Source of the DNA: Planctomycetota bacterium | Lineage (GTDB): Bacteria > Planctomycetota > PLA2 > JAEUHO01 | Length of the DNA stretch: 64,000 bases | Direction: 5' to 3' | NCBI GenBank assembly: GCA_965223505.1 | Contig: CBDCWP010000026.1 | Span: forward strand, 96,001 to 160,000 | The notes under the pieces: model-generated | What the model was told of the DNA's origin: nothing | Seen by the model: the letters and a program-made list of their open reading frames with translations, nothing else | Databases searched by the model: none | In this document: in pieces, positions 8,882-33,095 of the stretch | Numbering within the stretch: position 1 is the stretch's first letter | Layout: every line of letters begins with the position of its first letter | Position numbers and translations under genes: made by a program

Positions 8882-11152
8882 TCACCGCTCGCCTTCCGTG
8901 GACGGATCGCAGCCGCCTCCGAGCGGCTTGGGTAGGTACATGCGCAGCCCGTACCCGCCGGCCCGTCTCGCGCCCGGGTACTCGCCCTGCGCGACGTGTT
9001 CGACGCCTGGCAACTTCTCCAAAACGGCTTCGACGAGATCACGTCCAGGCGGCCGTCCCTGCCTGCCGTCGGAATCCGCCCAGACAGACTGGACCTCGGG
9101 TGTCAGCTTCTTCGGTGTCACGACTCGCGGCTTCCCCGCACGAGCGAGCCGATGTATGGCGCCAACGAGGGCCTCATTGATAGCGGCCTGGACATCGCCG
9201 TGCTCGTGGCGTGGCGTTGCGTTGGATCCGGCCTTGGAAGGAACGAGATCCGCTTCGGCGGCGCGGTACACCATGCGCCCTCGGTCGTTGTCCCAACCGA
9301 GCCGCAGCCACCAGCTGCGACTGGCCACTCCAGGTGGCTCGGGTGGTCGACACCCCTGCGCCAGTGCCTCCGCGCGCTGCGCGAGCCACCGAAGATGCCC
9401 AGGGTCTCGCGCCTCAACTTCGGCCTTCATGACCGTCGATTGCTCATCGACAACCCGAATCCCAAGGTTGGCGCTGGACGCGGCGCGGATCGCCGTGGAG
9501 CCGAGCATGTGGACATGCGACGACGAACCCTCGCCGGCCTTGCGGTCGTGGTGGCAGCACCAGACTGTCGCGGGAATCGCGAGTAGGGCGTTCACCATTG
9601 CGACAGCGTCGCCGGCCTCACTGATGCTCTGCCCCGAGCCCATGGCGGAGAAGGCCGTGTAGGTGTCGATCAAGACCAGATCAACACCTGACTTCTCGAC
9701 GACTCGTGCGACGCCATCGCGCAGTGCCTCAGGAGAAACGAGGAGACTCTTGAACTCGCGAGACGCGATGAGCAACCGGCCCGATCCGCGCAACTCGTAG
9801 TCCGGGTCGTAGAGATCGAAGAAGCTGTGTGCCATCGCCTCCGGCATCTCTGTGAGCACGAGCACGCGCTTCGGTGGCCGTTGACCGAGTTCAATGACGC
9901 CGGCGATCGGGTCGTTGCAACGAAGTGCCTCGCAGAGGCAGTAGAAGGCGAAGTTCGACTTCGAGGACTTGGGCGGGGCATGAACGAAGTTGAGCGCACC
10001 CGCAAGCACGGCCGGCCTCAACACGAATACCTGCTGCGGCGCAGGATTCTCCTTCGTGAAGATGGTCGCGAAGCCGCCGGAGGTGATGAGTTCGTCGAGT
10101 CGATCGATCTCGCTCTGAGCATCCACCATGACATCCCTCCATCGGCTTGGCATGGAGATCCAGCCGGGGATTCCTGCCGCGCGGGCGTCGCGAGCCATCC
10201 TGTTCAGAGTGCCGAGCGTGATTCGATCCTGACCAACGCTGCGCTTGAACGACGCAAGCTTGTTCTTGACGTCTTCGCGCCCGCGGTACTTGTCACGGGA
10301 CTGCTTCGACCAGTCGTCGGCCAGGTCAACAACGACCTCGCGTGCGTCGTCACCCCACGCGTCAATCACGCTCTGCAGGCCAGCAAGGACGCGAATCCAC
10401 GTTTCGTAGTCCGCTGCGACGGGAGCGCCAAGACCCGACAGAGCCCTCACCGCGTCCGAGATGGCGCGACGCGATGACGATCCGCTGCACTGTGCTGGAC
10501 TGCTTCGCGCGCCAGAAGTCTCGGACACGAGCAACACATCAAGGAGCCAGGACGGACCATTGGGGATGTCCTCGGGATATGGCAGATCGTCTTCCCACGC
10601 GTATTCGCCCTCGGCACCCTTCTCACGCACGACGCTCGGTTCGAGCATCAGATAGAACGAGTTCGCCCATCCGCACTCAACACCGGTCCCAATGCCGAGA
10701 GGCTTGCGCGACGGCGTACGTCCGCTCGGATAGCGCATGAGGAAGTGCCAGCCGCCGCTCCATGACCGCTGCGTCGGGAAGCGGCCCCGAAGCCAACCGA
10801 CCGGATCCGTAAGGAACTCCCCCGGCACTTCGGCACGTTCCCCAACCGCCACGGCAAGGTCGCGCGGCCCGTCCTTCTCGTCCTTCGTGTCGACGTCGAG
10901 GTAGAGCACGCCCGGCGGCGGAAGCCCTGCGAGATTAGCTTGCCCTCCGAAGTCTCTGTCGAGAACTGCCTCGAGCTCGTGAATGTCCGCGGTCGCGTCG
11001 TTCTTCCCTGCGGACCCCTTGGTCGGCTTCTTCGAGAAGCGCGGGACCCAGAACTGGGTCCACCCCCTAGCACTGTTCTGTGCAGCGGCTTCGACAAGTT
11101 CGTCGCGCGGTGGCATCGCACGCACGACTTCTGACCTGGCAAGTGTCGGCAC
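8882..11152 (-). CDS. Primase-polymerase / PriCT-2 / AAA_25-type helicase replication protein
   Basis: Prim-pol LDVD and GGWHF; PriCT-2-like DYETWIRV...WSKQS..KY; Walker A APPKSSKS, Walker B LVLIDT. Confidence 0.85.
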   Translation of the reverse strand: MPTLARSEVVRAMPPRDELVEAAAQNSARGWTQFWVPRFSKKPTKGSAGKNDATADIHELEAVLDRDFGGQANLAGLPPPGVLYLDVDTKDEKDGPRDLAVAVGERAEVPGEFLTDPVGWLRGRFPTQRSWSGGWHFLMRYPSGRTPSRKPLGIGTGVECGWANSFYLMLEPSVVREKGAEGEYAWEDDLPYPEDIPNGPSWLLDVLLVSETSGARSSPAQCSGSSSRRAISDAVRALSGLGAPVAADYETWIRVLAGLQSVIDAWGDDAREVVVDLADDWSKQSRDKYRGREDVKNKLASFKRSVGQDRITLGTLNRMARDARAAGIPGWISMPSRWRDVMVDAQSEIDRLDELITSGGFATIFTKENPAPQQVFVLRPAVLAGALNFVHAPPKSSKSNFAFYCLCEALRCNDPIAGVIELGQRPPKRVLVLTEMPEAMAHSFFDLYDPDYELRGSGRLLIASREFKSLLVSPEALRDGVARVVEKSGVDLVLIDTYTAFSAMGSGQSISEAGDAVAMVNALLAIPATVWCCHHDRKAGEGSSSHVHMLGSTAIRAASSANLGIRVVDEQSTVMKAEVEARDPGHLRWLAQRAEALAQGCRPPEPPGVASRSWWLRLGWDNDRGRMVYRAAEADLVPSKAGSNATPRHEHGDVQAAINEALVGAIHRLARAGKPRVVTPKKLTPEVQSVWADSDGRQGRPPGRDLVEAVLEKLPGVEHVAQGEYPGARRAGGYGLRMYLPKPLGGGCDPSTEGER

Positions 11153-11178
11153 GGCTAAGCCCTGAGCCCTGCCGGCTC

Positions 11179-11370
11179 TTAGGCCCTACGCCGTTGTTCG
11201 ATGTACGACGCGATGTCGCCCGGGTGGAACGCGATGCGGCGGGCGGAGACTCGTACGGTGGTCAGCGCCCCTGATGCGACCAGGGATCTCAGGGTGCGCA
11301 AGCTCACTGTGAGCTGTCGCGCCGCCTCCTGCGCAGAGACGAGTTGAACGGCGGGAATCGACTGGCGCAT
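11179..11370 (-). CDS. Excisionase/AlpA-like HTH protein
   Basis: LVSAQEAARQLTVSLRTLRSLVASGALTTVRVSARRIAF; 63 aa; directly upstream of the primase. Confidence 0.85.
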   Translation of the reverse strand: MRQSIPAVQLVSAQEAARQLTVSLRTLRSLVASGALTTVRVSARRIAFHPGDIASYIEQRRRA

Positions 11371-11463
11371 GTGCTTGCTCCATTGCGACGGTGTTGTCGT
11401 GCAATGGGGTGTAGCAGTCTCCGACAGCGGTCCGTAAGCCGCCCGCCGTAAAACAAATCACCG

Positions 11464-12234
11464 CTACGGCGATTGTCTTACGCGGCCTTCCCACCTTCCC
11501 GTCTGCGGGTGCTTCCTGGCCTCGACATCAGAGACCTCGGGATCATCACGGTGGCATCGAAGTTCGCCTGCCGCCGAACGTACGCTCGAGAATAGGCCCT
11601 CATGCTCGAAGCGAACGAGCGCGATCCACTGGTGCTTCTGCGCCACGCCATTCTCGCGAATGAGTTGCGCGAGGCGCTTCCATGCCGGATTCTCCTTCGG
11701 TGGCGCTCCCCGGCGTTTGGGGTGCGCCGGAGGCCGTGGAACTTCGAGCGCATCCAGAAAAGTCCACTTGGTTCTGAAGACCTTGGCAGCGGTTTCCGCG
11801 CCGCTAGCGAGGCGCCCGCCAAGTCGCCGCGAACGTGCGTAGAACCCTGTCTTTCGGGTCTCCCAATCCTCGGAGAGTCCTTCCTTAAAGAGCCCGAGAA
11901 TCTCCCGTGCGAGAACCCCCGCCCGGTGCAATGAGGCTCGCGTCGTCGGGTTCTCCCCGAGACGGTAGAAGCGTTCGAGCTGCTGGTGCGTCACGTAGGT
12001 GCGGATGAGCGGCTCAACCGGAGCGCCGTCCTTCTCGGGCCAGCCACGCCCCGCCGCCGCATACTCGTACATCATCCTCTGCAACTCGATGATCCGAGAG
12101 ACGACATCGCGCGGATCCTCGATGTATGCGCTCGCCCCCGTCCACCTACACCCTAGCGCCATCAACTCCGTCAACTCACCATGAAGGTCATGGAATGTCG
12201 GGTGCGGAATGTGATCAACTCGCAACTCTTCCAT
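11464..12234 (-). CDS. Hypothetical protein
   Basis: Long ORF; likely ATG at 12234 (MEELRVDH). Confidence 0.55.
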   Translation of the reverse strand: MEELRVDHIPHPTFHDLHGELTELMALGCRWTGASAYIEDPRDVVSRIIELQRMMYEYAAAGRGWPEKDGAPVEPLIRTYVTHQQLERFYRLGENPTTRASLHRAGVLAREILGLFKEGLSEDWETRKTGFYARSRRLGGRLASGAETAAKVFRTKWTFLDALEVPRPPAHPKRRGAPPKENPAWKRLAQLIRENGVAQKHQWIALVRFEHEGLFSSVRSAAGELRCHRDDPEVSDVEARKHPQTGRWEGRVRQSP

Positions 12235-12371
12235 TCTGCGAGTGTATCTAGCGGAAGGGACGTGCAGGGAGTCCAGCCCTGTGCAGTGCTCATTGCGATA
12301 GCTGCGGACGGGGCTATTTCTGGGGGCGGGACAACCGCGGCGCCAACCGCCAGCTGCTTCGTTCGGAGCCA

Positions 12372-13706
12372 ATGCAAATGCGGATCAGTGTCCAGTATCT
12401 GCCGGCCGACAAGTTGCTCCCGGACCCGGCGAACCCGCGGGTGATCTCGGACTCCGAGATGGCGGCGCTCGTCCGCTCGATCGAAACGTGGGGCCTCGTT
12501 GACCCCATCATCGTGCGCAAGGCCGACAGAACGGTGATTGGCGGCCATCAGCGCCTGCAAGCAGCGCGACGGCTTGGCTACAACTCGGTCCCCGTTGTCG
12601 AGGTCGATCTCTCGGAGGATCAGGCGCGGGCTCTCAACGTGGCGTTGAATCGAATCGGCGGCGAGTGGGACGTGCCCAAGCTGGCCGAACTTCTTCGCGG
12701 TCTCCCCGAGGACCTCGCCACGCTGACCGGCTTCGACCAGGACGCCATCGGGCGTGTGATGCACGAAGCCGAGCAAGCGATCCGCGCCATCCAGGGCGAG
12801 CAGGATCTCGACGCCGTGCCCGAACCGCCCGACGAGGCGGTCACGCAACGGGGCGATCTGATCCTGCTGGGTGAGCACCGCCTCTTGTGTGGTGACGCCG
12901 GAAGTACCGAGGATCTGGACCGACTACTCGACGGAGCGCCGATCCACTTGGCGAATTGTGACCCTCCCTACAACGTCAAGGTCGAGCCCAGGTCGAACAA
13001 TGCCATCGCAGCCGGCCTGACGACGAAGAACGACACGCGCGCCAAGACGCACCATCAGCAACTCGACGTGGCGCGCCATCCGGGCAAGGCCAAGGCGACG
13101 CACGATCGGCTGCGCGCGAAGGACCGTCCGTTAGAGAACGACTTCGTTTCCGACGAGGAGTTCGACCAACTCCTCCATGCGTGGTTCGGCAACCTGTCGC
13201 GTGTGCTACTCCCCGGTCGTGCAGCATACATCTGGGCCGGCTACGCCAACGTCGTGAACTTTCCGCAGGCGCTCAAGGAGGCGGGGCTCTACTTCTCACA
13301 GTGGATCATCTGGGACAAACAGTGGCCGGTGCTGACGCGCAAGGACTTCATGGGCGCCCACGAGGTCTGCTACTACACCTGGAAGGAAGGCGCGGCACAT
13401 CAGTTCTTCGGCCCGCCTAACGTGCCCGACGTATGGGCGGTGAAGAAGGTCAACCCGCAGTCCATGGTTCACCTCACGGAGAAGCCCGTCGAGTTGGCGA
13501 TCCGCGCGATTGAGTACAGCAGCGTTCCCGGTGAGAACGTGCTGGATCTGTTCGGCGGATCCGGTTCGACGCTGATTGCCTGTGAGCAAACGCAGCGCAA
13601 CGGCTACCTGATGGAGCTGGATGGTCTGTATTGCGACATCATCGTCGCTCGGTACGAGCATCTCACCGGGAAGAAGGCGGAACGCGTCCGTTCCGAACCG
13701 TCGTGA
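12372..13706 (+). CDS. ParB/Srx N-terminal domain + N6/N4 DNA methyltransferase (phage type)
   Basis: NPR...SIETWGLVDPIIV...IGGHQRL ParB-like; DPPY; H-TEKPV; VLDLFGGSGST. Confidence 0.92.
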   Translation: MQMRISVQYLPADKLLPDPANPRVISDSEMAALVRSIETWGLVDPIIVRKADRTVIGGHQRLQAARRLGYNSVPVVEVDLSEDQARALNVALNRIGGEWDVPKLAELLRGLPEDLATLTGFDQDAIGRVMHEAEQAIRAIQGEQDLDAVPEPPDEAVTQRGDLILLGEHRLLCGDAGSTEDLDRLLDGAPIHLANCDPPYNVKVEPRSNNAIAAGLTTKNDTRAKTHHQQLDVARHPGKAKATHDRLRAKDRPLENDFVSDEEFDQLLHAWFGNLSRVLLPGRAAYIWAGYANVVNFPQALKEAGLYFSQWIIWDKQWPVLTRKDFMGAHEVCYYTWKEGAAHQFFGPPNVPDVWAVKKVNPQSMVHLTEKPVELAIRAIEYSSVPGENVLDLFGGSGSTLIACEQTQRNGYLMELDGLYCDIIVARYEHLTGKKAERVRSEPS

Positions 13707-13775: not shown

Positions 13776-13874
13776 TGTCTCCCTCGACGAATAGGTGACC
13801 TGCGAAGGGCAGGAAACCGGTGTTGATAAGGCTCTCTCCTTTGGCTGGCCTATGTGCCAGGGAAAGGAAGAGAG

Positions 13875-15236
13875 ATGAACGACGATACGAAGGCGCCCGA
13901 GAGGTTGGACGGCCCGCTTCCGAAGGGAGGCGGAGGCGACGAAGTCGCCGGAGCCGAGCGGAGGAAGCGGGCCGTGAGCGGCTACGTGCCCCGCGGCACA
14001 CGCAGCCGTCGTGCTCGAACGGTGCGAAGCGACGCATCGCGTAGCGCGGAGTTCACGGGCGAGCAGCGCCTGTTGGCGCTTGACTGTTGGTTTCGCAGCG
14101 AGCTTGCGGCCACGGAGTTCGCGCCGCTGATCGGCGTGAGCACGGCGTCGCTGTACGCGTGGCGTCGCAAGTTCGAGGAGGAGGGCCCCGCCGGTTTGCT
14201 CGGGCACAAGCGCGGCATGAAGGGCAGCGGGCTGCCCGAGCCGGCGCGCCGTGCGATCCTGATGATGAAGGACGCGCATCCGGACTGGGGCCAGGATCGG
14301 ATCCACGACATGCTGATCCGAACGGAGGGTATCTCGGTTTCAGGCGGCGCGGTTCAGCGCGTGCTGAAGGAAGCGGGCTACGAGGTGGAGGCGGTTGCGC
14401 CGGCGCGCAACCCGCCCAAGGTGAAGCGATTCGAGCGCAAGCGACCGAACGAGCTTTGGCAAACGGATCTATTCACGTTTCTCCTGAAGCGCGAGCGTCG
14501 GCGCGTGCACCTGGTTTGCTACCTGGACGACTTCTCGCGTTTCATCGTGGGCTTCGGGCTTCACGCATCGGCGTCGGGTGCGATGGTTCGGGAGACGTTC
14601 GAGCAGGCGATCGCGAACTTCGGCGCGCCCGAGGAGATTTTGACCGACAACGGCGCGCAGTATCAGACCTGGCGCGGGAAGAGCTCGTTTCGCAAGCTTT
14701 GCGAGAAGCGCGGCATCAAGCAGATCGTGGCCAGGCCGAGGCGGCCGCAGACGCTTGGCAAGATCGAGCGTTTCTGGGGCACGCTGTTTCGCGAGCTGAT
14801 CGACGGAGCGATCTTCCGCGGCATGGAGGACGCCAAGACGCGCATTGCCCACTTCATCGGCTTCTACAACTTCCAGCGCACCCACCAGGGCATTGGCGGC
14901 CTGGTTCCAGCGGACCGATTCTTCGAAGCCTCGCAGAGCGTGCGCAGCGCCCTGCAGGAGGCGGTTGCAACGAACGCCAAGGAGTTGGCGCTTCACGGTG
15001 AGCCGCGCAAGCCCTTGTACCTGGCGGGTCGAATCGGCGACGAGCCGGTGTCGCTTCACGCCGAGGGCGACAAGGTGCTGTTGACGGACAAGGACGGCGT
15101 TCGCGAAGAGGTCGACTTGCGGGCATCGGGCAAGCGCAAGGATGCGGCCAAGGAGGGGCCGGGCGAGAGCGTGCTCGACGACGTGCTCGAGGAGCTCAAG
15201 GCCCTTGACGAGGCGCCCACGAAGGAGCAGGAGTAA
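13875..15236 (+). CDS. DDE transposase (IS481-like, HTH + rve)
   Basis: LWQTD, LDDFSR, LTDNG, PQTLGKIER; ATG 13875 follows an AG-rich RBS. Confidence 0.92.
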   Translation: MNDDTKAPERLDGPLPKGGGGDEVAGAERRKRAVSGYVPRGTRSRRARTVRSDASRSAEFTGEQRLLALDCWFRSELAATEFAPLIGVSTASLYAWRRKFEEEGPAGLLGHKRGMKGSGLPEPARRAILMMKDAHPDWGQDRIHDMLIRTEGISVSGGAVQRVLKEAGYEVEAVAPARNPPKVKRFERKRPNELWQTDLFTFLLKRERRRVHLVCYLDDFSRFIVGFGLHASASGAMVRETFEQAIANFGAPEEILTDNGAQYQTWRGKSSFRKLCEKRGIKQIVARPRRPQTLGKIERFWGTLFRELIDGAIFRGMEDAKTRIAHFIGFYNFQRTHQGIGGLVPADRFFEASQSVRSALQEAVATNAKELALHGEPRKPLYLAGRIGDEPVSLHAEGDKVLLTDKDGVREEVDLRASGKRKDAAKEGPGESVLDDVLEELKALDEAPTKEQE

Positions 15237-15742
15237 TGCCTACGAAGAAGAAGAACGTGACGACGATCACGGCGAGCAAGACGTCGCGCAAGCACGTGGC
15301 AGTGATATTGGAAGCGCTCTCAGGCGAGATCGGCACGAGCGAGGCGGCTGAGCAGATGGGCGTGTCGCTCTCGCGCTACTACCAGCTCGAAGGCCGTGCT
15401 TTGAAGGGCATGCTGCGGGCGATGGAGCCGAAGAAGCGCGGCATCCAGAAGACGCCGCAGCGCGAGATATTGGCGCTGAAGGCCGAGAAACAGCACCTGG
15501 AGAAGGAGCTTCGGCGGCACCAGTCCCTGCTTCGTGCGGCCAATCGAAGCCTGGGGCTGGCGCGCGGCGGGCGCAAGCAGGCATCCTCGAAGAAGGGCCG
15601 CAGCGCCAAGCGCGGCCACCGCGGCAAGACGGTGCTGAAGACGCTGCGCACGGGCCTTGAAGAGAAAGGAAACGGCGATGGGACGGCGAAGCGAGATGCC
15701 GACGCTGGTGGCGCGCACGTCGGCGAGCGAGACGGCGCGTGA
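15236..15742 (+). CDS. Transposon accessory HTH/coiled-coil protein
   Basis: TSEAAEQMGVSLSRYYQLE HTH; start coupled to the transposase stop. Confidence 0.8.
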   Translation: MPTKKKNVTTITASKTSRKHVAVILEALSGEIGTSEAAEQMGVSLSRYYQLEGRALKGMLRAMEPKKRGIQKTPQREILALKAEKQHLEKELRRHQSLLRAANRSLGLARGGRKQASSKKGRSAKRGHRGKTVLKTLRTGLEEKGNGDGTAKRDADAGGAHVGERDGA

Positions 15743-16073
15743 GCGCGTGAAGGTGATTCTGCTCACGCTTGGCCGGCAGTGGAGCGTTGGCGATGCGTGC
15801 GAGCGTTTGGGCATCGGCCGAACGCGCTTCCAGGATCTTCGACGTAGGTTCTTGCAGGCCGGCGTTGAGGCGCTTGAAGGCGGCGCTTGTGGCCGGCCGC
15901 GCGCCGTGCTGCCTGACGACGATCATGAGCTTGAGCGCGAGGTGTCGAAGCTACGGCACCGAGTGCGCGTGGTGCGCACGCAGGTGGACATCTTCGATTG
16001 CGGGCTTGGCGAGGCGCCGCGGGTTCGGCACGCGCTGCATGTGGCGCACCAGGAAGGTTGGAGGCAGCGATGA
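15678..16073 (+). CDS. Transposon accessory HTH protein
   Basis: SVGDACERLGIGRTRFQDLRRRF...GRPR; RBS AAAGGA. Confidence 0.8.
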   Translation: MGRRSEMPTLVARTSASETARERVKVILLTLGRQWSVGDACERLGIGRTRFQDLRRRFLQAGVEALEGGACGRPRAVLPDDDHELEREVSKLRHRVRVVRTQVDIFDCGLGEAPRVRHALHVAHQEGWRQR

Positions 16074-17176
16074 GCGAGAAGATGTCGTACGAGGAGCAGG
16101 TGAAGTTCCGGCTTCAGGCCGTGGAGGTGATGCGGCGAAGTGGCTGGGACAAGGAAACACGCGCCTACCTGGCGCGAGTCCTTGGCGTGGCCGAGCGAAC
16201 GATCAGGCGTTGGGAGCTTCGCGTTCGCCAGGGCAAGCCGGTGTACGAGAAGCGTGGCCGCAAGGCCGATGACGTACCACGAGCGAAGCGGCAGAAGGTG
16301 CTGCATGCGATGTTCAAGCTGGGGCCGTTCTCGGGTGTGGCCGTACTTCGGGGCATGTTCAGCGACGTACCGTATCGCGTGCTTTCAGAGATGAAGAGGC
16401 GCCTGCTACGGGTGGCGCTGCGTCGATGGCGCTGGTATCGCAAGCGGCTAGAGTGGGTTCGTTCCGGGGCGGTGTGGGCGGCGGACTTCACCAGGCCCAA
16501 GGCTGGCCTCTGGCAGGGCAAGGATCGACTGTTCCTGGTTCGCGATCTCGGAAGCGGAGCGCAGCTGGCGGCCGTAGCCTGCCGGGGCGAGAAGACGAAG
16601 ACTGTGTGCGCGGCGCTGCTCGCTTTGATCACGCTGTTCGGAGCGCCGCTGATTCTGAAGAAGGACAACGCGGGCGCGTTTCGCTCGGAACAGACGGCCG
16701 CGTTGCTCGAGGAGCACGGCATCACGCCACTCACGTCGCCGCCGTACACGCCCGCCTACAACGGCGCGTGCGAGCGCAGCGGCGGGAACTTCAAGCGACG
16801 TGTACAGCACATCGCGCAGATGGAAGGACATCCCCGCATCTGGCTACCTCAAAACCTCGACGACGCCTTGCTCGTTGCGAATACGACGGCGAGGCCATGG
16901 GGTGCGACTGGGCCGACGCCGGCGGAGGCTCTTGAAGACCGCCGGCCGATCACGAGGCAAGAGAGAACGGCATTTGAGCACGATCTGAAGTTCGAGACCG
17001 ATGCCGCGCTCAAGACATTCAAGGAAAGAAACGCTAGAATGCCGACGTGCATCGAGCGCGCGTCAATCGACCGCAGCGCGACGCAGAGAACGCTCTGCAA
17101 GCACGGCTATCTACAGTTCCGGAGAGGGCGCTTATCAACACTAGTTTCCGCTTGGCGGACGCGGCCTAACGCGTAG
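16070..17176 (+). CDS. Second DDE transposase/integrase (HTH + rve)
   Basis: LARVLGVAERTIRRW HTH; WAADF, KKDNA, PAYNGACER; ATGA overlap at the start. Confidence 0.9.
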   Translation: MSEKMSYEEQVKFRLQAVEVMRRSGWDKETRAYLARVLGVAERTIRRWELRVRQGKPVYEKRGRKADDVPRAKRQKVLHAMFKLGPFSGVAVLRGMFSDVPYRVLSEMKRRLLRVALRRWRWYRKRLEWVRSGAVWAADFTRPKAGLWQGKDRLFLVRDLGSGAQLAAVACRGEKTKTVCAALLALITLFGAPLILKKDNAGAFRSEQTAALLEEHGITPLTSPPYTPAYNGACERSGGNFKRRVQHIAQMEGHPRIWLPQNLDDALLVANTTARPWGATGPTPAEALEDRRPITRQERTAFEHDLKFETDAALKTFKERNARMPTCIERASIDRSATQRTLCKHGYLQFRRGRLSTLVSAWRTRPNA

Positions 17177-17184
17177 GGGACACA

Positions 17185-18388
17185 GTACACGGACGTCGGT
17201 GGGACTACGCAGGTCTCAGATTCAAACGGGAATCTGACGGACAACGGAACGTATCTGTTCGAATACGACTACAGGAACCAGATCGTTCGCGTGAAACTGA
17301 AGTCAGATAGCTCGACTGTGGCGGAGTACCTCTACGACGCGCTGGGGCGGCGGGTCGAGAAGGAGGTAGGCGGCGACGTCTGGCGGTTCATCTACTCGGA
17401 CCTAGAGACAGTCGCCGTCTACGATGGGAGCAATAGCTGGCTGCAAGACTTCGTGTTCGGTCAACGAATCGATGAGGTCTTGATGCTCGAGCAGGCGGAC
17501 GTGCTCGACTTCGATGGGGATTCGAATACGACCGAGACGACGCGATCCTTCTACCATCTAAATGCCCTGGGGTCGGTGACTGAGATCACCGAGATGGACG
17601 AGGACGTTGCCGCCAGCTACCGCTACGACCCCTACGGCGCCGTGACGATTATTCGGAACAGCACCGAAGAGTCCGAGGACCCACTTGGGCAACCCTGGAT
17701 GTTCACAGGCAGGTTTGCCGATGAAGAGACGGGGATGTACTACTACCGCTCAAGGGCGTACGATCCGGAAGTTGGGAGATTCACTCAGCGAGACGGACTC
17801 AGCTACGCATCGGGTCCCAATCTATACGAGTACGTCGGGAGCCATCCTCCTTCCGGAAGAGATCCTCTCGGGCTTGAGGAAGAAGACACCGACGAGAAGA
17901 GCGCCGAAGACAAGCCGGACCAAGGTCCGGACACAGAGAAACTCATGAAGCCCAGGTGGCGGCCACCCGGCCGCGCAGGCTGGACCGCCGCATTTACGAA
18001 GGCACACCTCGAGTGGTGGGAGGTTATTATCCGCGAGTACGAGCTGCACGGGCATCCGGCGGAGCGCCGCCGTCCCGCTCCCGCGAAGCCCGAGAAAACC
18101 GCGTTCGACAAGGACGGCACGTCCCCACCGCCCTGGATGGTGATCCCCCATGTACCTGCAGGTGGGGGGGGGACGACCGTCTGCCCTGGGTCTGGGCCGA
18201 AGTCTCTGCGTGATTGGCTGGGTGATAAGGATCTGCCTCCGTGGCTGGTCGCGCCCCATCTTCTTGACGAACCGCTCGACGGCGAGAGTAACGCTGACGG
18301 CTCGGACGACGCGGGAAGTGACGGCGCGGGCAAGGGTGAGACAGAAGGCGACAAGAAGACCGGCGAGAGCGGGAAGCCCGCCAAGTAG
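17185..18388 (+). pseudogene. 5'-truncated Rhs/YD-repeat protein: core plus variable C-terminal tip
   Basis: Frame open from the transposon end; YDALGRR, YDPYG, FTGR..DEETGMYYYRSRAYDPEVGRFTQRD, PPSGRDPLGL (PxxxxDPxG) followed by a distinct tip. Confidence 0.9.
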
Positions 18389-18501
18389 CGCCCCCCCGGG
18401 GGAGCTTGGCGGCCGCCCAATCACTTGAACCTGAAGCAGCGATTCGCGGTTCCGGTACGATAGCGATGTGGTGCCGTACGCACTCTCGGAGTTTCGCCCC
18501 G

Positions 18502-20010
18502 ATGGCCCTTCGTATGACTCTAGCGGTCACTCTTCTATTGGCAGCGCCTTCAATTTGGGCTGACGAGTCGCCAGAGATGGGACGCATGACGGAGGCAACA
18601 AGTGTTGTCGAGCGCAACCTTAGGATGCTGGTCCAGGGCCAAGAAGTTGGCGGTACGCGCGTCCGTGTCGGAAGGACGAAAGATGGGAACCGGCTGGCCG
18701 AGACCGAATCGCTTATCCGCATGACACTCGGGGACGGCGATCGCGACGACAGAGTGATCGAGTCGCGAGCATACTCGCTTGAGTGCTTCGACAGCGACGG
18801 CAGGATGCGTTGGATACGCACCCGAGCGACCGAAGGCGAAGCCGCGACGACGATGAGTGTCCGGTTCAGCGTCACCCACGCACGAATCAAGTGGGACTCG
18901 CCCGACGGCGATGGAGAGGAGCGCATCGAACTGCCCGCAGACTTTAGTTCGGACTACCAGGTCTTTCAGTCACTCGTGAGAGACTTCCGTCGGAACGAAT
19001 CAAGTGCGGCGTCGTACTCGAGATGGGTGGGGGGAGACATCCCGTTCGAAGCAGCTCAAATGACCGTCATTGAGAAGACGTCAGTCACGCATCGGGGCAA
19101 GAAGCACGACGGCTTTCTCATTCAGATGGAAGGGGGCCGAATCGTCGTGGACGCGGATTTCGTTCCCATGCGCGCTACTAGGTTCGGGATATACGAAATT
19201 AAGTGGATCGACGCCCCCCCCTTCGATTTCTCGCCTAGTGGCTGGAACGTAAGCAGTTCCATCCCGGTCGAAGGGCTGGCTCCGACCTCAAAGCACCTCG
19301 AATCGCTAGAGATGATCGCGACCCTCGTTGAAGATGATCCGGCGCCAGTGTTCTCGAGCAATCGATATCAGGACGTGAAAAGGGATGGAAAGACCTACTC
19401 TCTCACCCTAGGTTCGACGCGGCCCAAGTTAGCCGCCCGCCTTGAGTTTCCTCTTGAAGTCACAGATGAAAGGGCCAAGCACTATCTCTCGCCGACTCTC
19501 CTGAGCCAGTCCGACCACCCGCTGATCGTCGAACGGGCGAAGAAGATCGTAGACGGGTCGGGCGACGCGATTGAAGCCGCAACGCGCATCGTGCAATGGG
19601 TCTACACAAACCTTGAGAAGTCGAGCGGTACGATCAGTTCTGCGTCCTCCATTCAAGCCCTCAGGGCGAGAATCGGCGACTGCACCGAGCACGCGGCGCT
19701 TGTTGTGGCGCTTTGTCGTGCCGTTGGAATCCCCGCTCGCAACGTTCGTGGGATCATGTACTTCGTGGCACGCGGCGCGCCCAGAGCTGGATATCACGCG
19801 TGGGCGGAGATATGGCTGGGAGTGTGGACTGGTGTTGATGCGACTATTCCTGAGGTAGGGACTGCGGCCCGCTACATCCTACTCTACGTCGATGAGCCAG
19901 GGGAAAGCGTGAGTCTCGCTGAGCGCTCTCGAGCATTGCTCGGAAAAGTCCGCCTGCGCGTCACCGCATATAGGCCCCAAGGCGGAAAGCGAACGGTCGT
20001 AGAGCGCTGA
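18502..20010 (+). CDS. Secreted transglutaminase-like domain protein
   Basis: Signal peptide; GDCTEHAALVVALCRAVGIPAR, YHAWAE, VDAT give a Cys-His-Asp triad. Confidence 0.88.
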   Translation: MALRMTLAVTLLLAAPSIWADESPEMGRMTEATSVVERNLRMLVQGQEVGGTRVRVGRTKDGNRLAETESLIRMTLGDGDRDDRVIESRAYSLECFDSDGRMRWIRTRATEGEAATTMSVRFSVTHARIKWDSPDGDGEERIELPADFSSDYQVFQSLVRDFRRNESSAASYSRWVGGDIPFEAAQMTVIEKTSVTHRGKKHDGFLIQMEGGRIVVDADFVPMRATRFGIYEIKWIDAPPFDFSPSGWNVSSSIPVEGLAPTSKHLESLEMIATLVEDDPAPVFSSNRYQDVKRDGKTYSLTLGSTRPKLAARLEFPLEVTDERAKHYLSPTLLSQSDHPLIVERAKKIVDGSGDAIEAATRIVQWVYTNLEKSSGTISSASSIQALRARIGDCTEHAALVVALCRAVGIPARNVRGIMYFVARGAPRAGYHAWAEIWLGVWTGVDATIPEVGTAARYILLYVDEPGESVSLAERSRALLGKVRLRVTAYRPQGGKRTVVER

Positions 20011-20047
20011 GTTCACTCGCGTTCAGTCGCCAACTCGCTGAGCGATC

Positions 20048-21121
20048 CTACTTGTTGGAGAGAGCGCGCAAGATGCCGGAGTTCGAGTCGGCGACAGCGG
20101 CAATCGAGTCTCCGTCGCCCAAACCTAGCTGGCTGCGAGTCATGACTCTCACACTTCCGTTGGCGAAACCAACGATAGCCACGTCGCGAAAGTGAAGGTC
20201 GGCTACTAGCGGCTCCGAGCCGCTGCCGTCTTCGGACGCTAGCCTGTAGGCAGCTTCCGCGTTGCGCCGGCCGGCGTACGACGTCAGGTCGCTGAAGTCG
20301 TCGACGCGTGAGAACTCACCGCTCGCGATCGCGTCATAGCGACTTCGCCCCACTGACGCAAGTGAGCGGTGCCTGTCCGCCGGACTGAAGAGGATCTCTA
20401 GATGGGCCTCACCGCGAACATCCAGTCGGCCATCCGCCACGAGCGCGACAATGAACGCCTTCCCGGAATAGGGCGGATACCCTCCCGTGTTCGGCTTGTT
20501 GAGTGCAGTCAGGATCTTTCGGATGTTGTCGATAGAGCGAGCCTGGTCAGCTGCGACCCGCTGCCCCGCCAGCAAGCCCTTCATGTAGCGTCCAGGTGAC
20601 TTCGCGGACTCCGCCCACTGACGCTTCAGAAACGTAGTCATCATGCCATGAGCACCCGTACCGGTATCCACGAGCATCGGCCGCCCCGTGTTCGACGAAG
20701 TAGCCCAATCGAGATGGACGCGCCGAGAGCCAACTGTGTACGTCACCCTCCGCGACCCAGTCGAGAGTTCGCTTGAGACCAGCTCAGTTTCAGCCGGATT
20801 GTCTGGTCTGGGGGCCCTATCGATCAGACTGACCACGAGAAATCGCGCAAGATCGCGCATTAGTGAGTCGCTCTCGGCGGCCAGACTCGCGACGGCACGA
20901 ACGCCAAAGACCCGTCGCGCGATCTCAGGCACGTCAACATAGCGCGCCAGAACATCGAGGCTATCGGGCTCACCCAAATTCGCCGGAACCCGTAGGAGAT
21001 TGCGGGTTGCCGCGGTGACTGCCTCCTCGCTCGGTGCACGTACTCCGTCGTTTTCCTTCGCGGACACGTGCACTACGCCCCAGAGACCAAGAACAACAGC
21101 TATGCAAAGCGCGCGACGCAT
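20048..21121 (-). CDS. Secreted protein with C-terminal H-X9-DG-like domain; paralog of 25301-25873
   Basis: Signal peptide MRRALCIAVVLGLWG; HFRDVAIVGFANGSVR; aligns by eye with 25301-25873. Confidence 0.7.
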   Translation of the reverse strand: MRRALCIAVVLGLWGVVHVSAKENDGVRAPSEEAVTAATRNLLRVPANLGEPDSLDVLARYVDVPEIARRVFGVRAVASLAAESDSLMRDLARFLVVSLIDRAPRPDNPAETELVSSELSTGSRRVTYTVGSRRVHLDWATSSNTGRPMLVDTGTGAHGMMTTFLKRQWAESAKSPGRYMKGLLAGQRVAADQARSIDNIRKILTALNKPNTGGYPPYSGKAFIVALVADGRLDVRGEAHLEILFSPADRHRSLASVGRSRYDAIASGEFSRVDDFSDLTSYAGRRNAEAAYRLASEDGSGSEPLVADLHFRDVAIVGFANGSVRVMTRSQLGLGDGDSIAAVADSNSGILRALSNK

Positions 21122-21244
21122 GTGAATCCTCCGTGCCACTTCCGCCAGAACACGGCGAAGGGCAGCCGCGCTCATCCCCGGTCTCGACGGCCCGCCACAG
21201 GATACCGTAGGTTGTCGCTCCCACGCCGACGGCGATCGTGCAGA

Positions 21245-21555
21245 GTCGTGCACGGACGTGCGCACAGTCATGCCGATTTGTGGCAAAGACACCCGAGGCT
21301 GAATCTGCAACTTACGCCGTTGCAAACAGTTACGACTTGGGCTCGCCGGCCTGTCAAGCCGGAGGTCGCGGGTTCGAGTCCCGTCACTCCCGCCATTCTT
21401 GTTGCGCCCAGTTGCACTATCTCGCGCCCCGGTGCGCACTTCGGGCGATCTCGCGCCACGGCCGCCGATTCCTTACATCTCGCAACGATGTGCGAGGAAG
21501 TGCGAGGTCGTGGCAGAAGAACAGCAAAGAAGTGGTCATAGTCACTTTGCGGCGC
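21245..21555 (+). repeat. Junction att site 2: left arm (21245-21343), tRNA-Asp 3' core (21344-21399), right arm with the 45-bp motif (21503-21547)
   Basis: Core identical to the tRNA; left arm homologous to 26021-26119; right arm homologous to 422-575. Confidence 0.92.
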
Positions 21556-21574
21556 GGGTTCTTCGTGGACCCAC

Positions 21575-22509
21575 TCACACCTTCCAGAGGAGCTGACTTC
21601 CCTCTCGGCGCACGCGGCCTCGCTGTACCAGCACATCCAGCCCCAGGCTCATGCGGGCCTTCAGTTGCTTGCCCATTCGGTTGAACCCTAGGACACGGCC
21701 GGCCTCGCGAGACAAGTCGTCCGCGTCCATGCTGACTTGGTCGCGCAGCACCGCTGCAGCGGCGTTGGCAACCTCTTCGGGGGGGATTTCGTTCGCGTTG
21801 CGGCGGTCCCGATCTTCACGGCCCTGGACTCTCACGACGTCGTACGTGCGGGGGTCCTGGTGCGAGGCCCATAGGAACGTCGACGGTCCGGCCTTCGTCT
21901 CGATCAATGCGAGAGGTCGCAGTGCCTGCGCCATGCGACCAAGGACACGGTCTGTTGCTTTCTGGAGCCCGAATGCCTCCACAACCCGGCGGCAGAGCAA
22001 GCGGTACTCGATCGGTGCCTCTTGGTCGAGCACGCGCTGGGCGAGTTCCTGTATTGCTGCGGTTCGGGAGCTTGAATAGAAGGCATCCGGTCCGCCACGG
22101 GCCTTGAGCACCGGGGTTGCTCGGTACGTCCGGCCCGCCGGCGCGAACACCTGTTTCGCTGGCGCGGGTGAAGGTGAAGCTACGGCCGCCATGTGTGCAC
22201 TGGACGCGAAGAGGCCGGAGCTAGTCGCCATGACGTCATCAGCTCCGCCGCCTTCGGCATTGGTTGAGGTGGGACGTCCGAGTTCCTCAAAACGTTGAAC
22301 GACACGCTCAATCTCGCGATCCGGATCCAGCCACCAGTCCGTCGACCAGATGCGGTGCAATGACCAACCGAGACTTTCCAACACGGCTTGTCGTAGGCGG
22401 TCTCGGTCACGAGCCGTCTTGCCGCTGTGGTACATGGCTCCGTCGCACTCAATCCCCAATCGGAACCGGCCCGGCACGTCGGGGTCCTTGATGCCAAGAT
22501 CGACACGGT
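21575..22509 (-). pseudogene. C-terminal fragment of a DUF4011/SF1-helicase-type protein (Vsr-like nuclease + DUF3320-like)
   Basis: RVDLGIKDP..PGRFRLGIECDGAMYHSGKTARDRDRLRQAVLESLGWSLHRIWSTDW; 5' part replaced by the partial transposon. Confidence 0.8.
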
Positions 22510-23298
22510 GAGGCGCCTGCTACGGGTGGCGCTGCGTCGATGGCGCTGGTATCGGAGGCGGCTAAAGTGGGTTCGTGCCGGGGCGGTGTGGGCGGCGGAC
22601 TTCACCAGGCCCAAGGCTGGCCTGTGGCAGGGCAAGGATCGACTGTTCCTGGTTCGCGATCTCGGAAGCGGAGCGCAGCTGGCGGCCGTAGCCTGCCGGG
22701 GCGAGAAGACGAAGACTGTGTGCTCGGTGCTGCTCGCTTTGATCACGCTGTTCGGAGCGCCGCTCGTTCTGAAGAAGGACAACGCCGGCGCGTTTCGCTC
22801 GGAGCAAACGAAGGCGTTGCTCGAGGAGCACGGCATCACGCCACTCACGTCGCCGCCGTACACGCCCGCCTACAACGGCGCGTGCGAACGAAGCGGCGGC
22901 AACTTCAAGCGACGTGTGGAGCACATCGCGCAGATGGAAGAACATCCCCGCATCTGGCTCCCTCAAAACCTCGACGACGCCTTGCTCGTTGCGAATACGA
23001 CGGCGAGGCCATGGGGTGCGACCGGGCCCACGCCGGCGGAGGCCCTCGAAGACCGCCGGCCCATCACGAGGCAAGAGAGAACAGCATTCGAGCACGATCT
23101 GAAGTTCGAGACCGATGCCGCGCTCAAGACATTCAAGGAAAGAAACGCTAGAATGCCGATGTGCATCGAGCGCGCGTCAATCGACCGCAGCGCGACGCAG
23201 AGAACGCTCTGCAAGCACGGCTATCTACAGTTCCGGAGAGGGCGCTTATCAACACTAGTTTCCGCTTGGCGGACGCGGCCTAACGCGTAGGGGACACA
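22510..23298 (+). mobile_element. Partial copy 3 of the dual-DDE transposon (3' part of second transposase + right end)
   Basis: Near-identical to about 16397-17184; ends GGGGACACA. Confidence 0.92.
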
Positions 23299-23801: not shown

Positions 23802-23807
23802 GCTCCT

Positions 23808-25295: not shown

Positions 25296-25300
25296 CGCCT

Positions 25301-29686: not shown

Positions 29687-29694
29687 TGTGTCCC

Positions 29695-30801
29695 CTACGC
29701 GTTAGGCCGCCTCCGCCAAGCGGAAACTAGTGTTGATAAACGCCCTCTCCGGAACTGTAGATAGCCGTGCTTGCAGAGCGTTCTCTGCGTCGCGCTGCGG
29801 TCGATTGACGCGCGCTCGATGCACGTCGGCATTCTAGCGTTTCTTTCCTTGAATGTCTTGAGCGCGGCATCGGTCTCGATCTTCAGATCGTGCGCGAATG
29901 CCGTTCTCTCTTGCCTCGTGATGGGCCGGCGGTCTTCGAGGGCCTCCGCCGGCGTGGGCCCGGTCGCACCCCATGGCCTCGCCGTCGTATTCGCAACGAG
30001 CAAGGCGTCGTCGAGGTTTTGAGGTAGCCAGATGCGGGGATGTCCTTCCATCTGCGCGATGTGCTGTACACGTCGCTTGAAGTTCCCGCCGCTGCGCTCG
30101 CACGCGCCGTTGTAGGCGGGCGTGTACGGCGGCGACGTGAGTGGCGTGATGCCGTGCTCCTCGAGCAACGCGGCCGTCTGTTCCGAGCGAAATGCGCCGG
30201 CGTTGTCCTTCTTCAGAATGAGCGGCGCTCCGAACAGCGTGATCAATGCGAGCAGCGCCGCGCACACAGTCTTCGTCTTCTCGCCCCGGCAGGCTACGGC
30301 CGCCAGCTGCGCTCCGCTTCCGAGATCGCGAACCAGGAACAGTCGATCCTTGCCCTGCCACAGGCCAGCCTTGGGCCTGGTGAAGTCCGCCGCCCACACC
30401 GCCCCGGCACGAACCCACTTTAGCCGCCTCCGATACCAGCGCCATCGACGCAGCGCCACCCGTAGCAGGCGCCTCTTCATCTCTGAGAGCACTCGATACG
30501 GCACGTCGCTGAACATTCCCCGAAGTACGGTCACACCCGAGAACGGCCCGAGCTCGAACATCGCACGCAGCACCTTCTGCCGCTTCGCTCGTGGTACGTC
30601 ATCGGCCTTGCGGCCACGCTTCTCGTACACCGGCTTGCCCTGGCGAACGCGAAGCTCCCACCGCCTGATCGTTCGCTCGGCCACGCCAAGGACTCGCGCC
30701 AGGTAGGCGCGTGTTTCCTTGTCCCAGCCACTTCGCCGCATCACCTCCACGGCCTGAAGCCGGAACTTCACCTGCTCCTCGTACGACATCCTCTCGCTCA
30801 T
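29695..30801 (-). CDS. Second DDE transposase (copy 2)
   Basis: Near-identical to 16070-17176. Confidence 0.9.
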   Translation of the reverse strand: MSERMSYEEQVKFRLQAVEVMRRSGWDKETRAYLARVLGVAERTIRRWELRVRQGKPVYEKRGRKADDVPRAKRQKVLRAMFELGPFSGVTVLRGMFSDVPYRVLSEMKRRLLRVALRRWRWYRRRLKWVRAGAVWAADFTRPKAGLWQGKDRLFLVRDLGSGAQLAAVACRGEKTKTVCAALLALITLFGAPLILKKDNAGAFRSEQTAALLEEHGITPLTSPPYTPAYNGACERSGGNFKRRVQHIAQMEGHPRIWLPQNLDDALLVANTTARPWGATGPTPAEALEDRRPITRQERTAFAHDLKIETDAALKTFKERNARMPTCIERASIDRSATQRTLCKHGYLQFRRGRLSTLVSAWRRRPNA

Positions 30802-31193
30802 CCCTGCCTCCATCCTCCCTGGTGCGCCACATGCAGCGCGTGCCGAACCCGCGGCGCCTCGCCAAGCCCGCAATCGAAGATGTCCACCTGCGTTCGCACC
30901 ACGCGCACTCGGTGCCGTAGCTTCGACACCTCGCGCTCAAGCTCATGATCGTCGTCAGGCAGCACGGCGCGCGGCCGGCCACAAGCGCCGCCTTCAAGCG
31001 CCTCAACGCCGGCCTGCAAGAACCTACGTCGAAGATCCTGGAAGCGCGTTCGGCCGATGCCCAAACGCTCGCACGCATCGCCAACGCTCCACTGCCGGCC
31101 AAGCGTGAGCAGAATCACCTTCACGCGCTCACGCGCCGTCTCGCTCGCCGACGTGCGCGCCACCAGCGTCGGCATCTCGCTTCGCCGTCCCAT
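30798..31193 (-). CDS. Accessory HTH protein (copy 2)
   Basis: Near-identical to 15678-16073. Confidence 0.8.
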   Translation of the reverse strand: MGRRSEMPTLVARTSASETARERVKVILLTLGRQWSVGDACERLGIGRTRFQDLRRRFLQAGVEALEGGACGRPRAVLPDDDHELEREVSKLRHRVRVVRTQVDIFDCGLGEAPRVRHALHVAHQGGWRQG

Positions 31194-31635
31194 CGCCGTT
31201 TCCTTTCTCTTCAAGGCCCGTGCGCAGCGTCTTCAGCACCGTCTTGCCGCGGTGGCCGCGCTTGGCGCTGCGGCCCTTCTTCGAGGATGCCTGCTTGCGC
31301 CCGCCGCGCGCCAGCCCCAGGCTTCGATTGGCCGCACGAAGCAGGGACTGGTGCCGCCGAAGCTCCTTCTCCAGGTGCTGTTTCTCGGCCTTCAGCGCCA
31401 ATATCTCGCGCTGCGGCGTCTTCTGGATGCCGCGCTTCTTCGGCTCCATCGCCCGCAGCATGCCCTTCAAAGCACGGCCTTCGAGCTGGTAGTAGCGCGA
31501 GAGCGACACGCCCATCTGCTCAGCCGCCTCGCTCGTGCCGATCTCGCCTGAGAGCGCTTCCAATATCACTGCCACGTGCTTGCGCGACGTCTTGCTCGCC
31601 GTGATCGTCGTCACGTTCTTCTTCTTCGTAGGCAT
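31129..31635 (-). CDS. Accessory HTH/coiled-coil protein (copy 2)
   Basis: Protein identical to 15236-15742. Confidence 0.8.
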   Translation of the reverse strand: MPTKKKNVTTITASKTSRKHVAVILEALSGEIGTSEAAEQMGVSLSRYYQLEGRALKGMLRAMEPKKRGIQKTPQREILALKAEKQHLEKELRRHQSLLRAANRSLGLARGGRKQASSKKGRSAKRGHRGKTVLKTLRTGLEEKGNGDGTAKRDADAGGAHVGERDGA

Positions 31636-32996
31636 TACTCCTGCTCCTTCGTGGGCGCCTCGTCAAGGGCCTTGAGCTCCTCGAGCACGTCGTCGAGCAC
31701 GCTCTCGCCCGGCCCCTCCTTGGCCGCATCCTTGCGCTTGCCCGATGCCCGCAAGTCGACCTCTTCGCGAACGCCGTCCTTGTCCGTCAACAGCACCTTG
31801 TCGCCCTCGGCGTGAAGCGACACCGGCTCGTCGCCGATTCGACCCGCCAGGTACAAGGGCTTGCGCGGCTCACCGTGAAGCGCCAACTCCTTGGCGTTCG
31901 TTGCAACCGCCTCCTGCAGGGCGCTGCGCACGCTCTGCGAGGCTTCGAAGAATCGGTCCGCTGGAACCAGGCCGCCAATGCCCTGGTGGGTGCGCTGGAA
32001 GTTGTAGAAGCCGATGAAGTGGGCAATGCGCGTCTTGGCGTCCTCCATGCCGCGGAAGATCGCTCCGTCGATCAGCTCGCGAAACAGCGTGCCCCAGAAA
32101 CGCTCGATCTTGCCAAGCGTCTGCGGCCGCCTCGGCCTGGCCACGATCTGCTTGATGCCGCGCTTCTCGCAAAGCTTGCGAAACGAGCTCTTCCCGCGCC
32201 AGGTCTGATACTGCGCGCCGTTGTCGGTCAAAATCTCCTCGGGCGCGCCGAAGTTCGCGATCGCCTGCTCGAACGTCTCCCGAACCATCGCACCCGACGC
32301 CGATGCGTGAAGCCCGAAGCCCACGATGAAACGCGAGAAGTCGTCCAGGTAGCAAACCAGGTGCACGCGCCGACGCTCGCGCTTCAGGAGAAACGTGAAT
32401 AGATCCGTTTGCCAAAGCTCGTTCGGTCGCTTGCGCTCGAATCGCTTCACCTTGGGCGGGTTGCGCGCCGGCGCAACCGCCTCCACCTCGTAGCCCGCTT
32501 CCTTCAGCACGCGCTGAACCGCGCCGCCTGAAACCGAGATACCCTCCGTTCGGATCAGCATGTCGTGGATCCGATCCTGGCCCCAGTCCGGATGCGCGTC
32601 CTTCATCATCAGGATCGCACGGCGCGCCGGCTCGGGCAGCCCGCTGCCCTTCATGCCGCGCTTGTGCCCGAGCAAACCGGCGGGGCCCTCCTCCTCGAAC
32701 TTGCGACGCCACGCGTACAGCGACGCCGTGCTCACGCCGATCAGCGGCGCGAACTCCGTGGCCGCAAGCTCGCTGCGAAACCAACAGTCAAGCGCCAACA
32801 GGCGCTGCTCGCCCGTGAACTCCGCGCTACGCGATGCGTCGCTTCGCACCGTTCGCGCACGACGGCTGCGTGTGCCGCGGGGCACGTAGCCGCTCACGGC
32901 CCGCTTCCTCCGCTCGGCTCCGGCGACTTCGTCGCCTCCGCCTCCCTTCGGAAGCGGGCCGTCCAACCTCTCGGGCGCCTTCGTATCGTCGTTCAT
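31635..32996 (-). CDS. IS481-like DDE transposase (copy 2)
   Basis: Protein identical to 13875-15236. Confidence 0.92.
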   Translation of the reverse strand: MNDDTKAPERLDGPLPKGGGGDEVAGAERRKRAVSGYVPRGTRSRRARTVRSDASRSAEFTGEQRLLALDCWFRSELAATEFAPLIGVSTASLYAWRRKFEEEGPAGLLGHKRGMKGSGLPEPARRAILMMKDAHPDWGQDRIHDMLIRTEGISVSGGAVQRVLKEAGYEVEAVAPARNPPKVKRFERKRPNELWQTDLFTFLLKRERRRVHLVCYLDDFSRFIVGFGLHASASGAMVRETFEQAIANFGAPEEILTDNGAQYQTWRGKSSFRKLCEKRGIKQIVARPRRPQTLGKIERFWGTLFRELIDGAIFRGMEDAKTRIAHFIGFYNFQRTHQGIGGLVPADRFFEASQSVRSALQEAVATNAKELALHGEPRKPLYLAGRIGDEPVSLHAEGDKVLLTDKDGVREEVDLRASGKRKDAAKEGPGESVLDDVLEELKALDEAPTKEQE

Positions 32997-33095
32997 CTCT
33001 CTTCCTTTCCCTGGCACATAGGCCAGCCAAAGGAGAGAGCCTTATCAACACCGGTTTCCTGCCCTTCGCAGGTCACCTATTCGTCGAGGGAGACA

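Follow-up and report, generated by a model that had tools for sequence, protein, structure and literature searches.

How does an insertion sequence move that encodes two DDE transposases and no ATPase, and is such a unit one element or two? The question is raised by a 3409-bp element located at positions 13776-17184 of the stretch of DNA analyzed here, which covers 64,000 nucleotides from a Planctomycetota bacterium (assembly GCA_965223505.1, contig CBDCWP010000026.1) and is referred to as the window. The element contains four genes, here called O1 to O4, of which O1 and O4 encode the two DDE proteins, while O2 and O3 encode small proteins with helix-turn-helix (HTH) domains. To our knowledge, every characterized bacterial DDE insertion sequence has one catalytic protein, and in transposons that consist of several proteins the addition is an ATPase or a restriction-type nuclease rather than a further DDE protein. 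The element constitutes a single autonomous insertion sequence from a large clade related to IS481 and IS3, and a description of this clade was not found in the literature. Judging from the sequences, we consider it moderately probable that transposition would use both DDE proteins in a joint transpososome with end- or strand-specific roles, a judgment that covers the general claim of joint use together with the division of roles.

A mobile unit with four coupled genes

The assembly of this genome (44 contigs, 5.15 Mb) holds five full copies of the element, each 3409 bp long with identical boundaries and 99-100% identity; two of these are identical, two have 34 differences and one has 42. Precisely at TGT and ACA, the identity between the copies gives way to unrelated flanks. 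Because five copies of 3409 bp share the same boundaries in unrelated flanks, the element is mobile as a whole unit, which an earlier note made from the window alone had concluded from a second full copy with the same length and boundaries (Table 1). Two truncated copies were also identified, one in the window and one on another contig that covers element positions 1-1277 at the DNA level and O1 to residue 406; both terminate in unique DNA and not in another insertion sequence. A profile of the ends, made from 11 elements, recovered 12 ends over the whole genome, which are exactly those of the seven copies. The word depth in two sample runs was 24-28x for the element as compared to 2-7x for the flanks, a comparison made on contigs only that shows repetition and nothing more. 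Most differences between the copies are synonymous, and they are clustered, with one variant affecting O4 and a second one the part that extends from the 3' end of O1 to O3. The genome copies are mosaics.

Four open reading frames (ORFs) on the plus strand fill the element and are coupled or overlapping (Table 1). The junction between O1 and O2 is TAATG, the overlap between O2 and O3 is at most 86 nt, and O3 and O4 overlap by ATGA in the -1 phase, with the start codon of O4 preceded by GGAGG. No A-rich slippery motif was visible in the O3/O4 overlap region at positions 15998-16073.

The O1 protein contains the domains HTH_32, HTH_28 and rve (75.8 bits), and its residues 72-356 align with positions 2-284 of the NCBIfam model for IS481 (NF033577), that is, from end to end, with a score of 207.2 bits that is below the cut-off of 224. 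For O4, the scores were 68.9 bits against the IS3 model and 65.1 bits against the IS481 model. The motifs WQTD/TDNG/KIER in O1 and WAADF/KDNA/ACER in O4 were found in the sequence, and no ATPase domain was identified in any of the four proteins at an E-value of 0.1 or better. The ORFs, the domain matches and the gene junctions thereby bear out the earlier description of a 3409-bp transposon with two DDE transposases, two HTH proteins, coupled genes and no ATPase. That description had called the second rve protein unrelated to the first, which proved wrong: O1 and O4 have a common HTH-rve architecture with 26% identity over 240 residues (E 0.006), and on this alignment they can be taken as distant paralogs. 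The two small proteins O2 and O3 are also paralogs (34% identity over 64 residues, E 9e-9). The neighbors of O2 in the protein atlas are hypothetical proteins, some with HTH_28 or HTH_Tnp_1 domains, including one cluster with the automatically assigned name "leucine-zipper of insertion element."

The tips of the element, TGT...ACA, belong to a bipartite and imperfect inverted repeat, with the left tip at 13776 reading TGTCTCCC and the right tip at 17177-17184 reading GGGACACA. A subterminal motif of 19 nt, GGAAACNNGTGTTGATAAG, is located 36 bp inside the left tip (13812-13830, plus strand) and, inverted, 35 bp inside the right tip (17131-17149, minus strand), in agreement with the subterminal inverted repeats seen previously at 35-36 bp from the ends. 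This motif has five matches in the window, as compared to 0.05 expected from shuffled sequences, and the remaining three are accounted for by the second copy and the right-end fragment. The right subterminal repeat is read through by the C-terminal codons of O4.

Table 1. Coordinates of the element, its genes, its other copies and the upstream genes in the 64,000-nucleotide window.
Feature	Position	Strand	Description
Left end (inverted repeat left, IRL)	13776..13840	+	Tip TGTCTCCC, ACG..TAGG block, subterminal GGAAACCGGTGTTGATAAG at 13812-13830, then CTCTCC; end profile matches here in all copies
O1, IS481-like DDE transposase	13875..15236	+	453 aa from ATG; 460 aa from GTG at 13854; ATG is the likelier start
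O2, small OrfA-like HTH protein	15236..15742	+	168 aa; weak matches to HTH_28 (E 0.0011) and HTH_Tnp_1 (E 0.0077)
O3, small OrfA-like HTH protein	15696..16073	+	125 aa when read from the ATG aligned with the start of O2; other starts at 15657 and 15678; HTH_28 (E 1.3e-8)
O4, second, divergent HTH-rve DDE protein	16070..17176	+	368 aa; rve 43.5 bits, weak HTH matches
Right end (inverted repeat right, IRR)	17120..17184	-	Minus-strand tip TGTGTCCC; subterminal repeat at 17131-17149; end profile match
Second full copy	29687..33095	-	3409 bp; 34 differences from the first copy and inverted relative to it
5'-truncated, diverged fragment	22427..23298	+	O4 residues 77-368 at 88% identity, and right end
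Prim-Pol/PriCT_2/AAA_25 primase-helicase	8882-11149	-	Upstream of the element
ParB_N and N6_N4 methylase fusion	12372-13706		Upstream of the element

Conservation of the gene set, the ends and two DDE sites

In a protein search with O4, 89 relatives were identified among 8000 scored candidates, and their names, where given, are limited to "transposase InsO family protein" and "DDE-type integrase/transposase/recombinase." Searching 1.84 billion representatives with a profile gave a family size of 941 representative clusters (50% identity) at E-values of 1e-30 or lower. We also scanned species-representative genomes, which revealed 126 loci that encode a relative, and analyzed the best 80 of these. 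The host metagenome-assembled genomes (MAGs) of the loci are assigned by their record titles to the Planctomycetota, Acidobacteriota, Gemmatimonadota, NC10, Myxococcota, Thermodesulfobacteriota, Verrucomicrobiota and Pseudomonadota, a host range that is provisional because the binning of repeat contigs is unreliable.

The four genes were present in the order O1-O2-O3-O4 and on the same strand in 61 of the 80 O4-seeded loci, and O1 was located upstream of O4 in another seven, with one of the small genes undetected by tblastn. O1 was absent from 12 loci; eight of these are 5'-truncated copies, and four are at contig edges, with less than 1.7 kb of contig before O4. Four apparently intact ORFs were found in 39 of the 80 loci. 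The related elements are 3404-4480 bp long, and for two of them (L051 and L062) the assembled contig coincides exactly with the element, from TGT to ACA. The earlier note had named halves that move independently with their own ends as the observation that would speak against a joint unit; no solo half-element with its own ends was found among the 80 loci. Four loci with only O4 (L063, L087, L088 and L034) were considered as half-elements and rejected, being truncated copies or a 7.6-kb segmental duplication.

The reverse test, in which 401 genomes of the phylum were searched with O1 and with O4, identified 21 O1 places at an identity of at least 54%. For 16 of these, O4 follows downstream at a distance of 0.9-2.7 kb and on the same strand, and the remaining five are degraded, lie at contig edges or have an unknown contig extent. 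The co-occurrence of the genes, which the earlier note had proposed to examine across genomes, is thereby seen in both directions. A second group of O1 sequences (15 places, 39-45% identity) seemingly lacked O4 by tblastn, but all five loci inspected in this group (L089-L093 in G199, G226, G359, G240 and G034) represent a three-gene form that consists of O1', one HTH gene similar to O2 and O3, and an O4-like gene. The O4-like proteins of the three-gene form match the O4 profile over their full length (E 1e-13 to 1e-19), and homologous ends of the TGT..CGAAAT type are visible in three of the five loci (L089, L091 and L093), with provisional spans of approximately 2.85-3.3 kb. The layout is a family trait and the gene set is co-inherited across phyla.

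Two pairs of similar elements carry different phylum labels. The elements L062 and L074 are 89% identical over exactly the length of the element, and their MAGs are labelled Gemmatimonadaceae and Betaproteobacteria. The elements L039 and L046, from Thermoguttaceae and Akkermansiaceae MAGs, are 99.85% identical. Such pairs reflect either recent horizontal transfer or mis-binned repeat contigs.

The end profile had matches in 75 loci; in these, one end on the plus strand precedes O1, one end on the minus strand follows O4, and none was placed between the genes. The consensus of the ends is TGTGCCCCTCACGAAAT, followed by about 20 variable bases, a AAATnGGTnGAGGAAT block and then CCTCC, and TGT is present at the start of 78 of 78 family ends. 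At position 4, the left ends have C in 20 of 33 cases, G in 12 and T in one, as compared to G in 43, A in two and C in none of 45 right ends. The left and right tips of the family are systematically different.

Both O1 and O4 have the RNase H-like core and the triad with D, D(~60), E(~35) spacing that define the rve superfamily. The O1 triad D198/D258/E298 (numbered from the ATG) is invariant in 28 of 28 sequences. In O4, where an apparently intact triad had been noted before, the residues D139/D199/E235 are invariant in 22 of 22 sequences, down to an identity of 31%. Each triad is at least 95% conserved in a set of 40 sequences, and both are kept in all five three-gene relatives. By these residues, both proteins look active. 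The model of O4 (predicted local distance difference test score, pLDDT, of 83) consists of an RNase H-like core that is flanked by two helical bundles on the N-terminal side and by a helical part on the C-terminal side, with retroviral integrase cores and TnsB as its best structural matches (E ~1e-9). The model of O1 (mean pLDDT 72) contains two HTH units, the rve core and a small C-terminal beta domain of low confidence that is absent from O4.

Among the genome copies, O1 differs by 12-13 synonymous and no non-synonymous changes, and the ratio of non-synonymous to synonymous polymorphism (pN/pS) is 0 for O1, 0.08 for O2, 0.07-0.36 for O3 and 0.09-0.25 for O4. All four genes are under purifying selection. 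The patristic distances in the gene trees of 40 elements are correlated, with Mantel r-values from 0.42 for O1-O4 to 0.74 for O3-O4 (p 0.001 each), in a type of test that is inflated by kinship. Fusions of a complete O3 with a complete O4 were identified in 6 of the 149 best O4 representatives (P0094, P0126, P0142, P0146, P0185 and P0222; 529-598 aa) and in 2 of the 39 intact loci; these proteins resemble IS3 OrfAB, and 21 of the 149 representatives, the six fusions included, have a length of at least 480 aa. In most of the 39 intact elements, the overlap between O1 and O2 is 1 or 4 nt long.

Insertion junctions and the probable use of two enzymes

The copies were collected, as the earlier note had proposed, for a definition of target duplication and target preference. 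A flush repeat of at least 3 bp was found at one of the five copies in this genome (3 bp, AGC) and at none of the 18 relatives with both flanks, of which two have a repeat of 2 bp, as by chance. Some copies have a short repeat that is displaced by 1-2 nt at one junction, and when displacements of up to 3 nt from the tip were considered, a match of at least 3 nt was seen in 7 of 21 cases as compared to 16% of the non-cognate flank pairs (p 0.04), which is a marginal signal. The two C44 copies are inverted relative to each other, and ACCT occurs in both the left flank of one and the right flank of the other, which would fit a 4-bp duplication followed by an inversion; the reciprocal pair is mismatched. 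None of the tested forms of target duplication, whether flush, displaced or cross-paired, is convincing. As for a preference, only an excess of AC at the first two bases of the right flank was observed (7 of 24 copies, p 0.0005 against 1/16), which represents either a target preference or carried-over bases. In one relative (L028, positions 1687-1823), a left-type end and a right-type end meet at their tips (…ACA, a 1-bp spacer, TGT…) about 390 bp upstream of a full element, an arrangement expected for the relic of a junction in a circle or a tandem dimer.

The simplest interpretation is a requirement for both DDE proteins, because the element is mobile as a whole unit, has a fixed gene set with two conserved DDE sites that is under purifying selection, contains no internal ends and has differentiated tips. 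The transposase would then be a two-enzyme machine made from O1 and O4. O3 is probably the DNA-binding partner of O4, as OrfA is of OrfB in IS3, because O3 and O4 occur as natural fusions, which are suggestive only, and O2 is probably the partner of O1 because their genes are start-stop coupled. The labor could be divided in two ways. The two ends, which are systematically different, may each be served by one of the enzymes. Alternatively, the 3'-OH cleavage and the strand transfer may fall to one enzyme and the cut of the second strand to its partner, a functional parallel to TnsA with TnsB in Tn7. The asymmetry of the tips would be compatible with one enzyme per end and is no demonstration of such a split, and the data do not decide between an end-specific and a strand-specific arrangement. 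A more specific form, in which an obligate pair of DDE enzymes, each with an OrfA-like partner, divides the chemistry and inserts the element without a staggered cut of the target, and hence without a duplication, can be put forward tentatively.

Several points weigh against a machine of two enzymes. The interaction between O1 and O4 and the need for O4 are both inferred by us. The related sequences are not independent, so that the counts overstate the support, and among the six gene pairs, O1 and O4 have the lowest correlation (r 0.42). The mosaic copies in this genome indicate that the modules can recombine, and single fusions of O1 with O2 (L028) and of O2 with O3 (L047) weaken the argument from the O3-O4 fusions. 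The missing target duplication is unexpected for rve enzymes and is explained by none of the readings considered here. Finally, the sequence identity is 49-77% for O1 as compared to 29-62% for O4, and O1 could be the sole true transposase.

In that case O2, O3 and O4 would be regulators, with O4 serving for example as an inhibitor, a copy-number controller or a target selector with an integrase fold. O1 is the most conserved gene and comes close to the IS481 model, O4 evolves much faster than O1, and the enzymes of IS481 and IS3 work alone. A pure regulator would, however, not need D139/D199/E235, which are conserved even in the five three-gene relatives, and the low pN/pS of O4 also speaks against this explanation, which we consider unlikely.

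The element could also have arisen by an old fusion of an IS481-like insertion sequence, which contributed O1 and perhaps O2, with an IS3-like insertion sequence in which O3 and O4 correspond to OrfA and OrfB, after which the inner ends were lost and one enzyme acts while the other is carried along. The appearance of O1 as a complete IS481-type enzyme, the paralogy of O2 and O3, and the -1 phase, ATGA overlap and natural fusions of O3 and O4, as in IS3 OrfAB, are in line with such an origin. An enzyme that is carried along should however decay, yet both triads and all ORFs persist in the different phyla and in the sister lineage with three genes. Moreover, the end profile placed no internal ends in the 75 loci with matches, the 80 loci contain no solo half with its own ends, and O4 has an HTH domain and a start codon of its own, with no visible slippery motif in the overlap. 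This origin, with a single acting enzyme, is therefore quite improbable.

It is very improbable that the two enzymes take successive steps in a copy-out-paste-in cycle, one making a circle or an abutted-end junction and the other integrating it, for which the abutted tips with the 1-bp spacer in L028 and the displaced repeats (7 of 21 against 16%, p 0.04), similar in appearance to the carry-over of junction bases in IS2, can be cited, but the junction relic is a single one, the displaced-repeat signal is marginal, and no circle junction (IRR-IRL) was present in the assembled contigs, which cannot show rare forms.

If the element does use O1 and O4 jointly, the two DDE proteins, which have been kept together across several phyla with conserved active sites, would provide a natural system for how two integrase-fold enzymes share strand cleavages or ends. 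A two-enzyme family could also explain copies without target duplications. Since annotation labels the genes as separate generic transposases, the element goes unrecognized.

Known systems and the surrounding region

Elements of the IS481 family have a single transposase ORF, a length of roughly 1-1.3 kb, inverted repeats that start with TGT and target duplications of 4-15 bp. The element resembles them in the end-to-end alignment of O1 with NF033577 and in its TGT tips, and the nearest annotated relatives of O1 in a collection of 72,556 plasmids are IS481 family transposases (~30% identity); O4 has no match in the same collection at an E-value of 1e-5. It differs from them in that O1 (207.2 bits) and O4 (65.1 bits) are both below the model cut-off of 224, in having four genes, including a second DDE protein, over 3.4-4.5 kb instead of a single ORF, and in that the duplication of 4-15 bp was not seen for the copies or their relatives.

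The likeness to IS3 consists of the OrfA-like character of O2 and O3 (HTH_Tnp_1, HTH_28 and the atlas cluster named after a leucine zipper), the TG...CA tips, and the -1 phase and natural fusions of O3 and O4, which recall the IS3 OrfAB protein that is made by a -1 frameshift. In contrast to IS3, O4 has its own HTH domain and start codon with no slippery motif visible, and an extra, IS481-like enzyme is present; the scores of O1 (146.9 bits) and O4 (68.9 bits) are below the cut-off of 160 for the IS3 model NF033516.

With Tn7, in which TnsA acts with TnsB, and with IS21, Tn552, Mu and Tn5053, the element would share the concept of a transpososome with multiple catalytic or core proteins, as well as ends with more than one, here putative, protein-binding block. 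The modeled core of O4 superposes on the cores of TnsB and retroviral integrases. No ATPase or TnsA-type nuclease is present among the four proteins, unlike in these systems, and the lack of an ATPase sets the element apart from the IS21, Tn552, Mu and Tn7 types. It also differs from Tn7 in that the second enzyme is itself an rve DDE protein and in that no 5-bp duplication is seen. RIT elements likewise have a fixed set of several paralogous recombinases that always occur together, but these are three tandem tyrosine recombinases and not DDE enzymes.

The element is below the curated cut-offs of the models for IS481, IS3, IS21, IS630 and ISNCY. The relations of IS481, IS3 and IS1202 are covered in the part of PMC10045372 consulted here, which contains nothing on insertion sequences with two DDE enzymes, and a full-text literature search found no description of an insertion sequence with two DDE transposases. 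By this search and the NCBIfam cut-offs the element is apparently unclassified, as had been suspected from the window alone. We regard it as a DDE insertion sequence whose two-enzyme gene set is new and conserved, and it probably deserves a family of its own.

In the window, the two full copies face in opposite directions, with approximately 12.5 kb of DNA between them (13776-33095 with the copies included). This segment contains the truncated copy, a fragment similar to restriction endonucleases, a transglutaminase-like gene and an RHS-like ORF that is cut by the right end of the first copy. To its left, the first copy is flanked by DNA downstream of the gene for the ParB-N/DNA methylase fusion, and to its right by the inside of the ORF with RHS repeats; the two flanks are unrelated. 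The bracketing by inverted copies and the unrelated flanks of the first copy suggest a rearrangement mediated by the insertion sequence. One contig joins a different RHS-like sequence to the right flank, from a point 2 nt inside the element; it may represent an empty site or a paralog, and no left junction could be paired with it. Away from any copy, a match of 41 nt with 93% identity to element positions 3316-3356, in the right subterminal region, was found at positions 32302-32343 of contig C43 (genome G000). The genes upstream of the element (window positions 8882-13706; Table 1) resemble an integrated mobile element.

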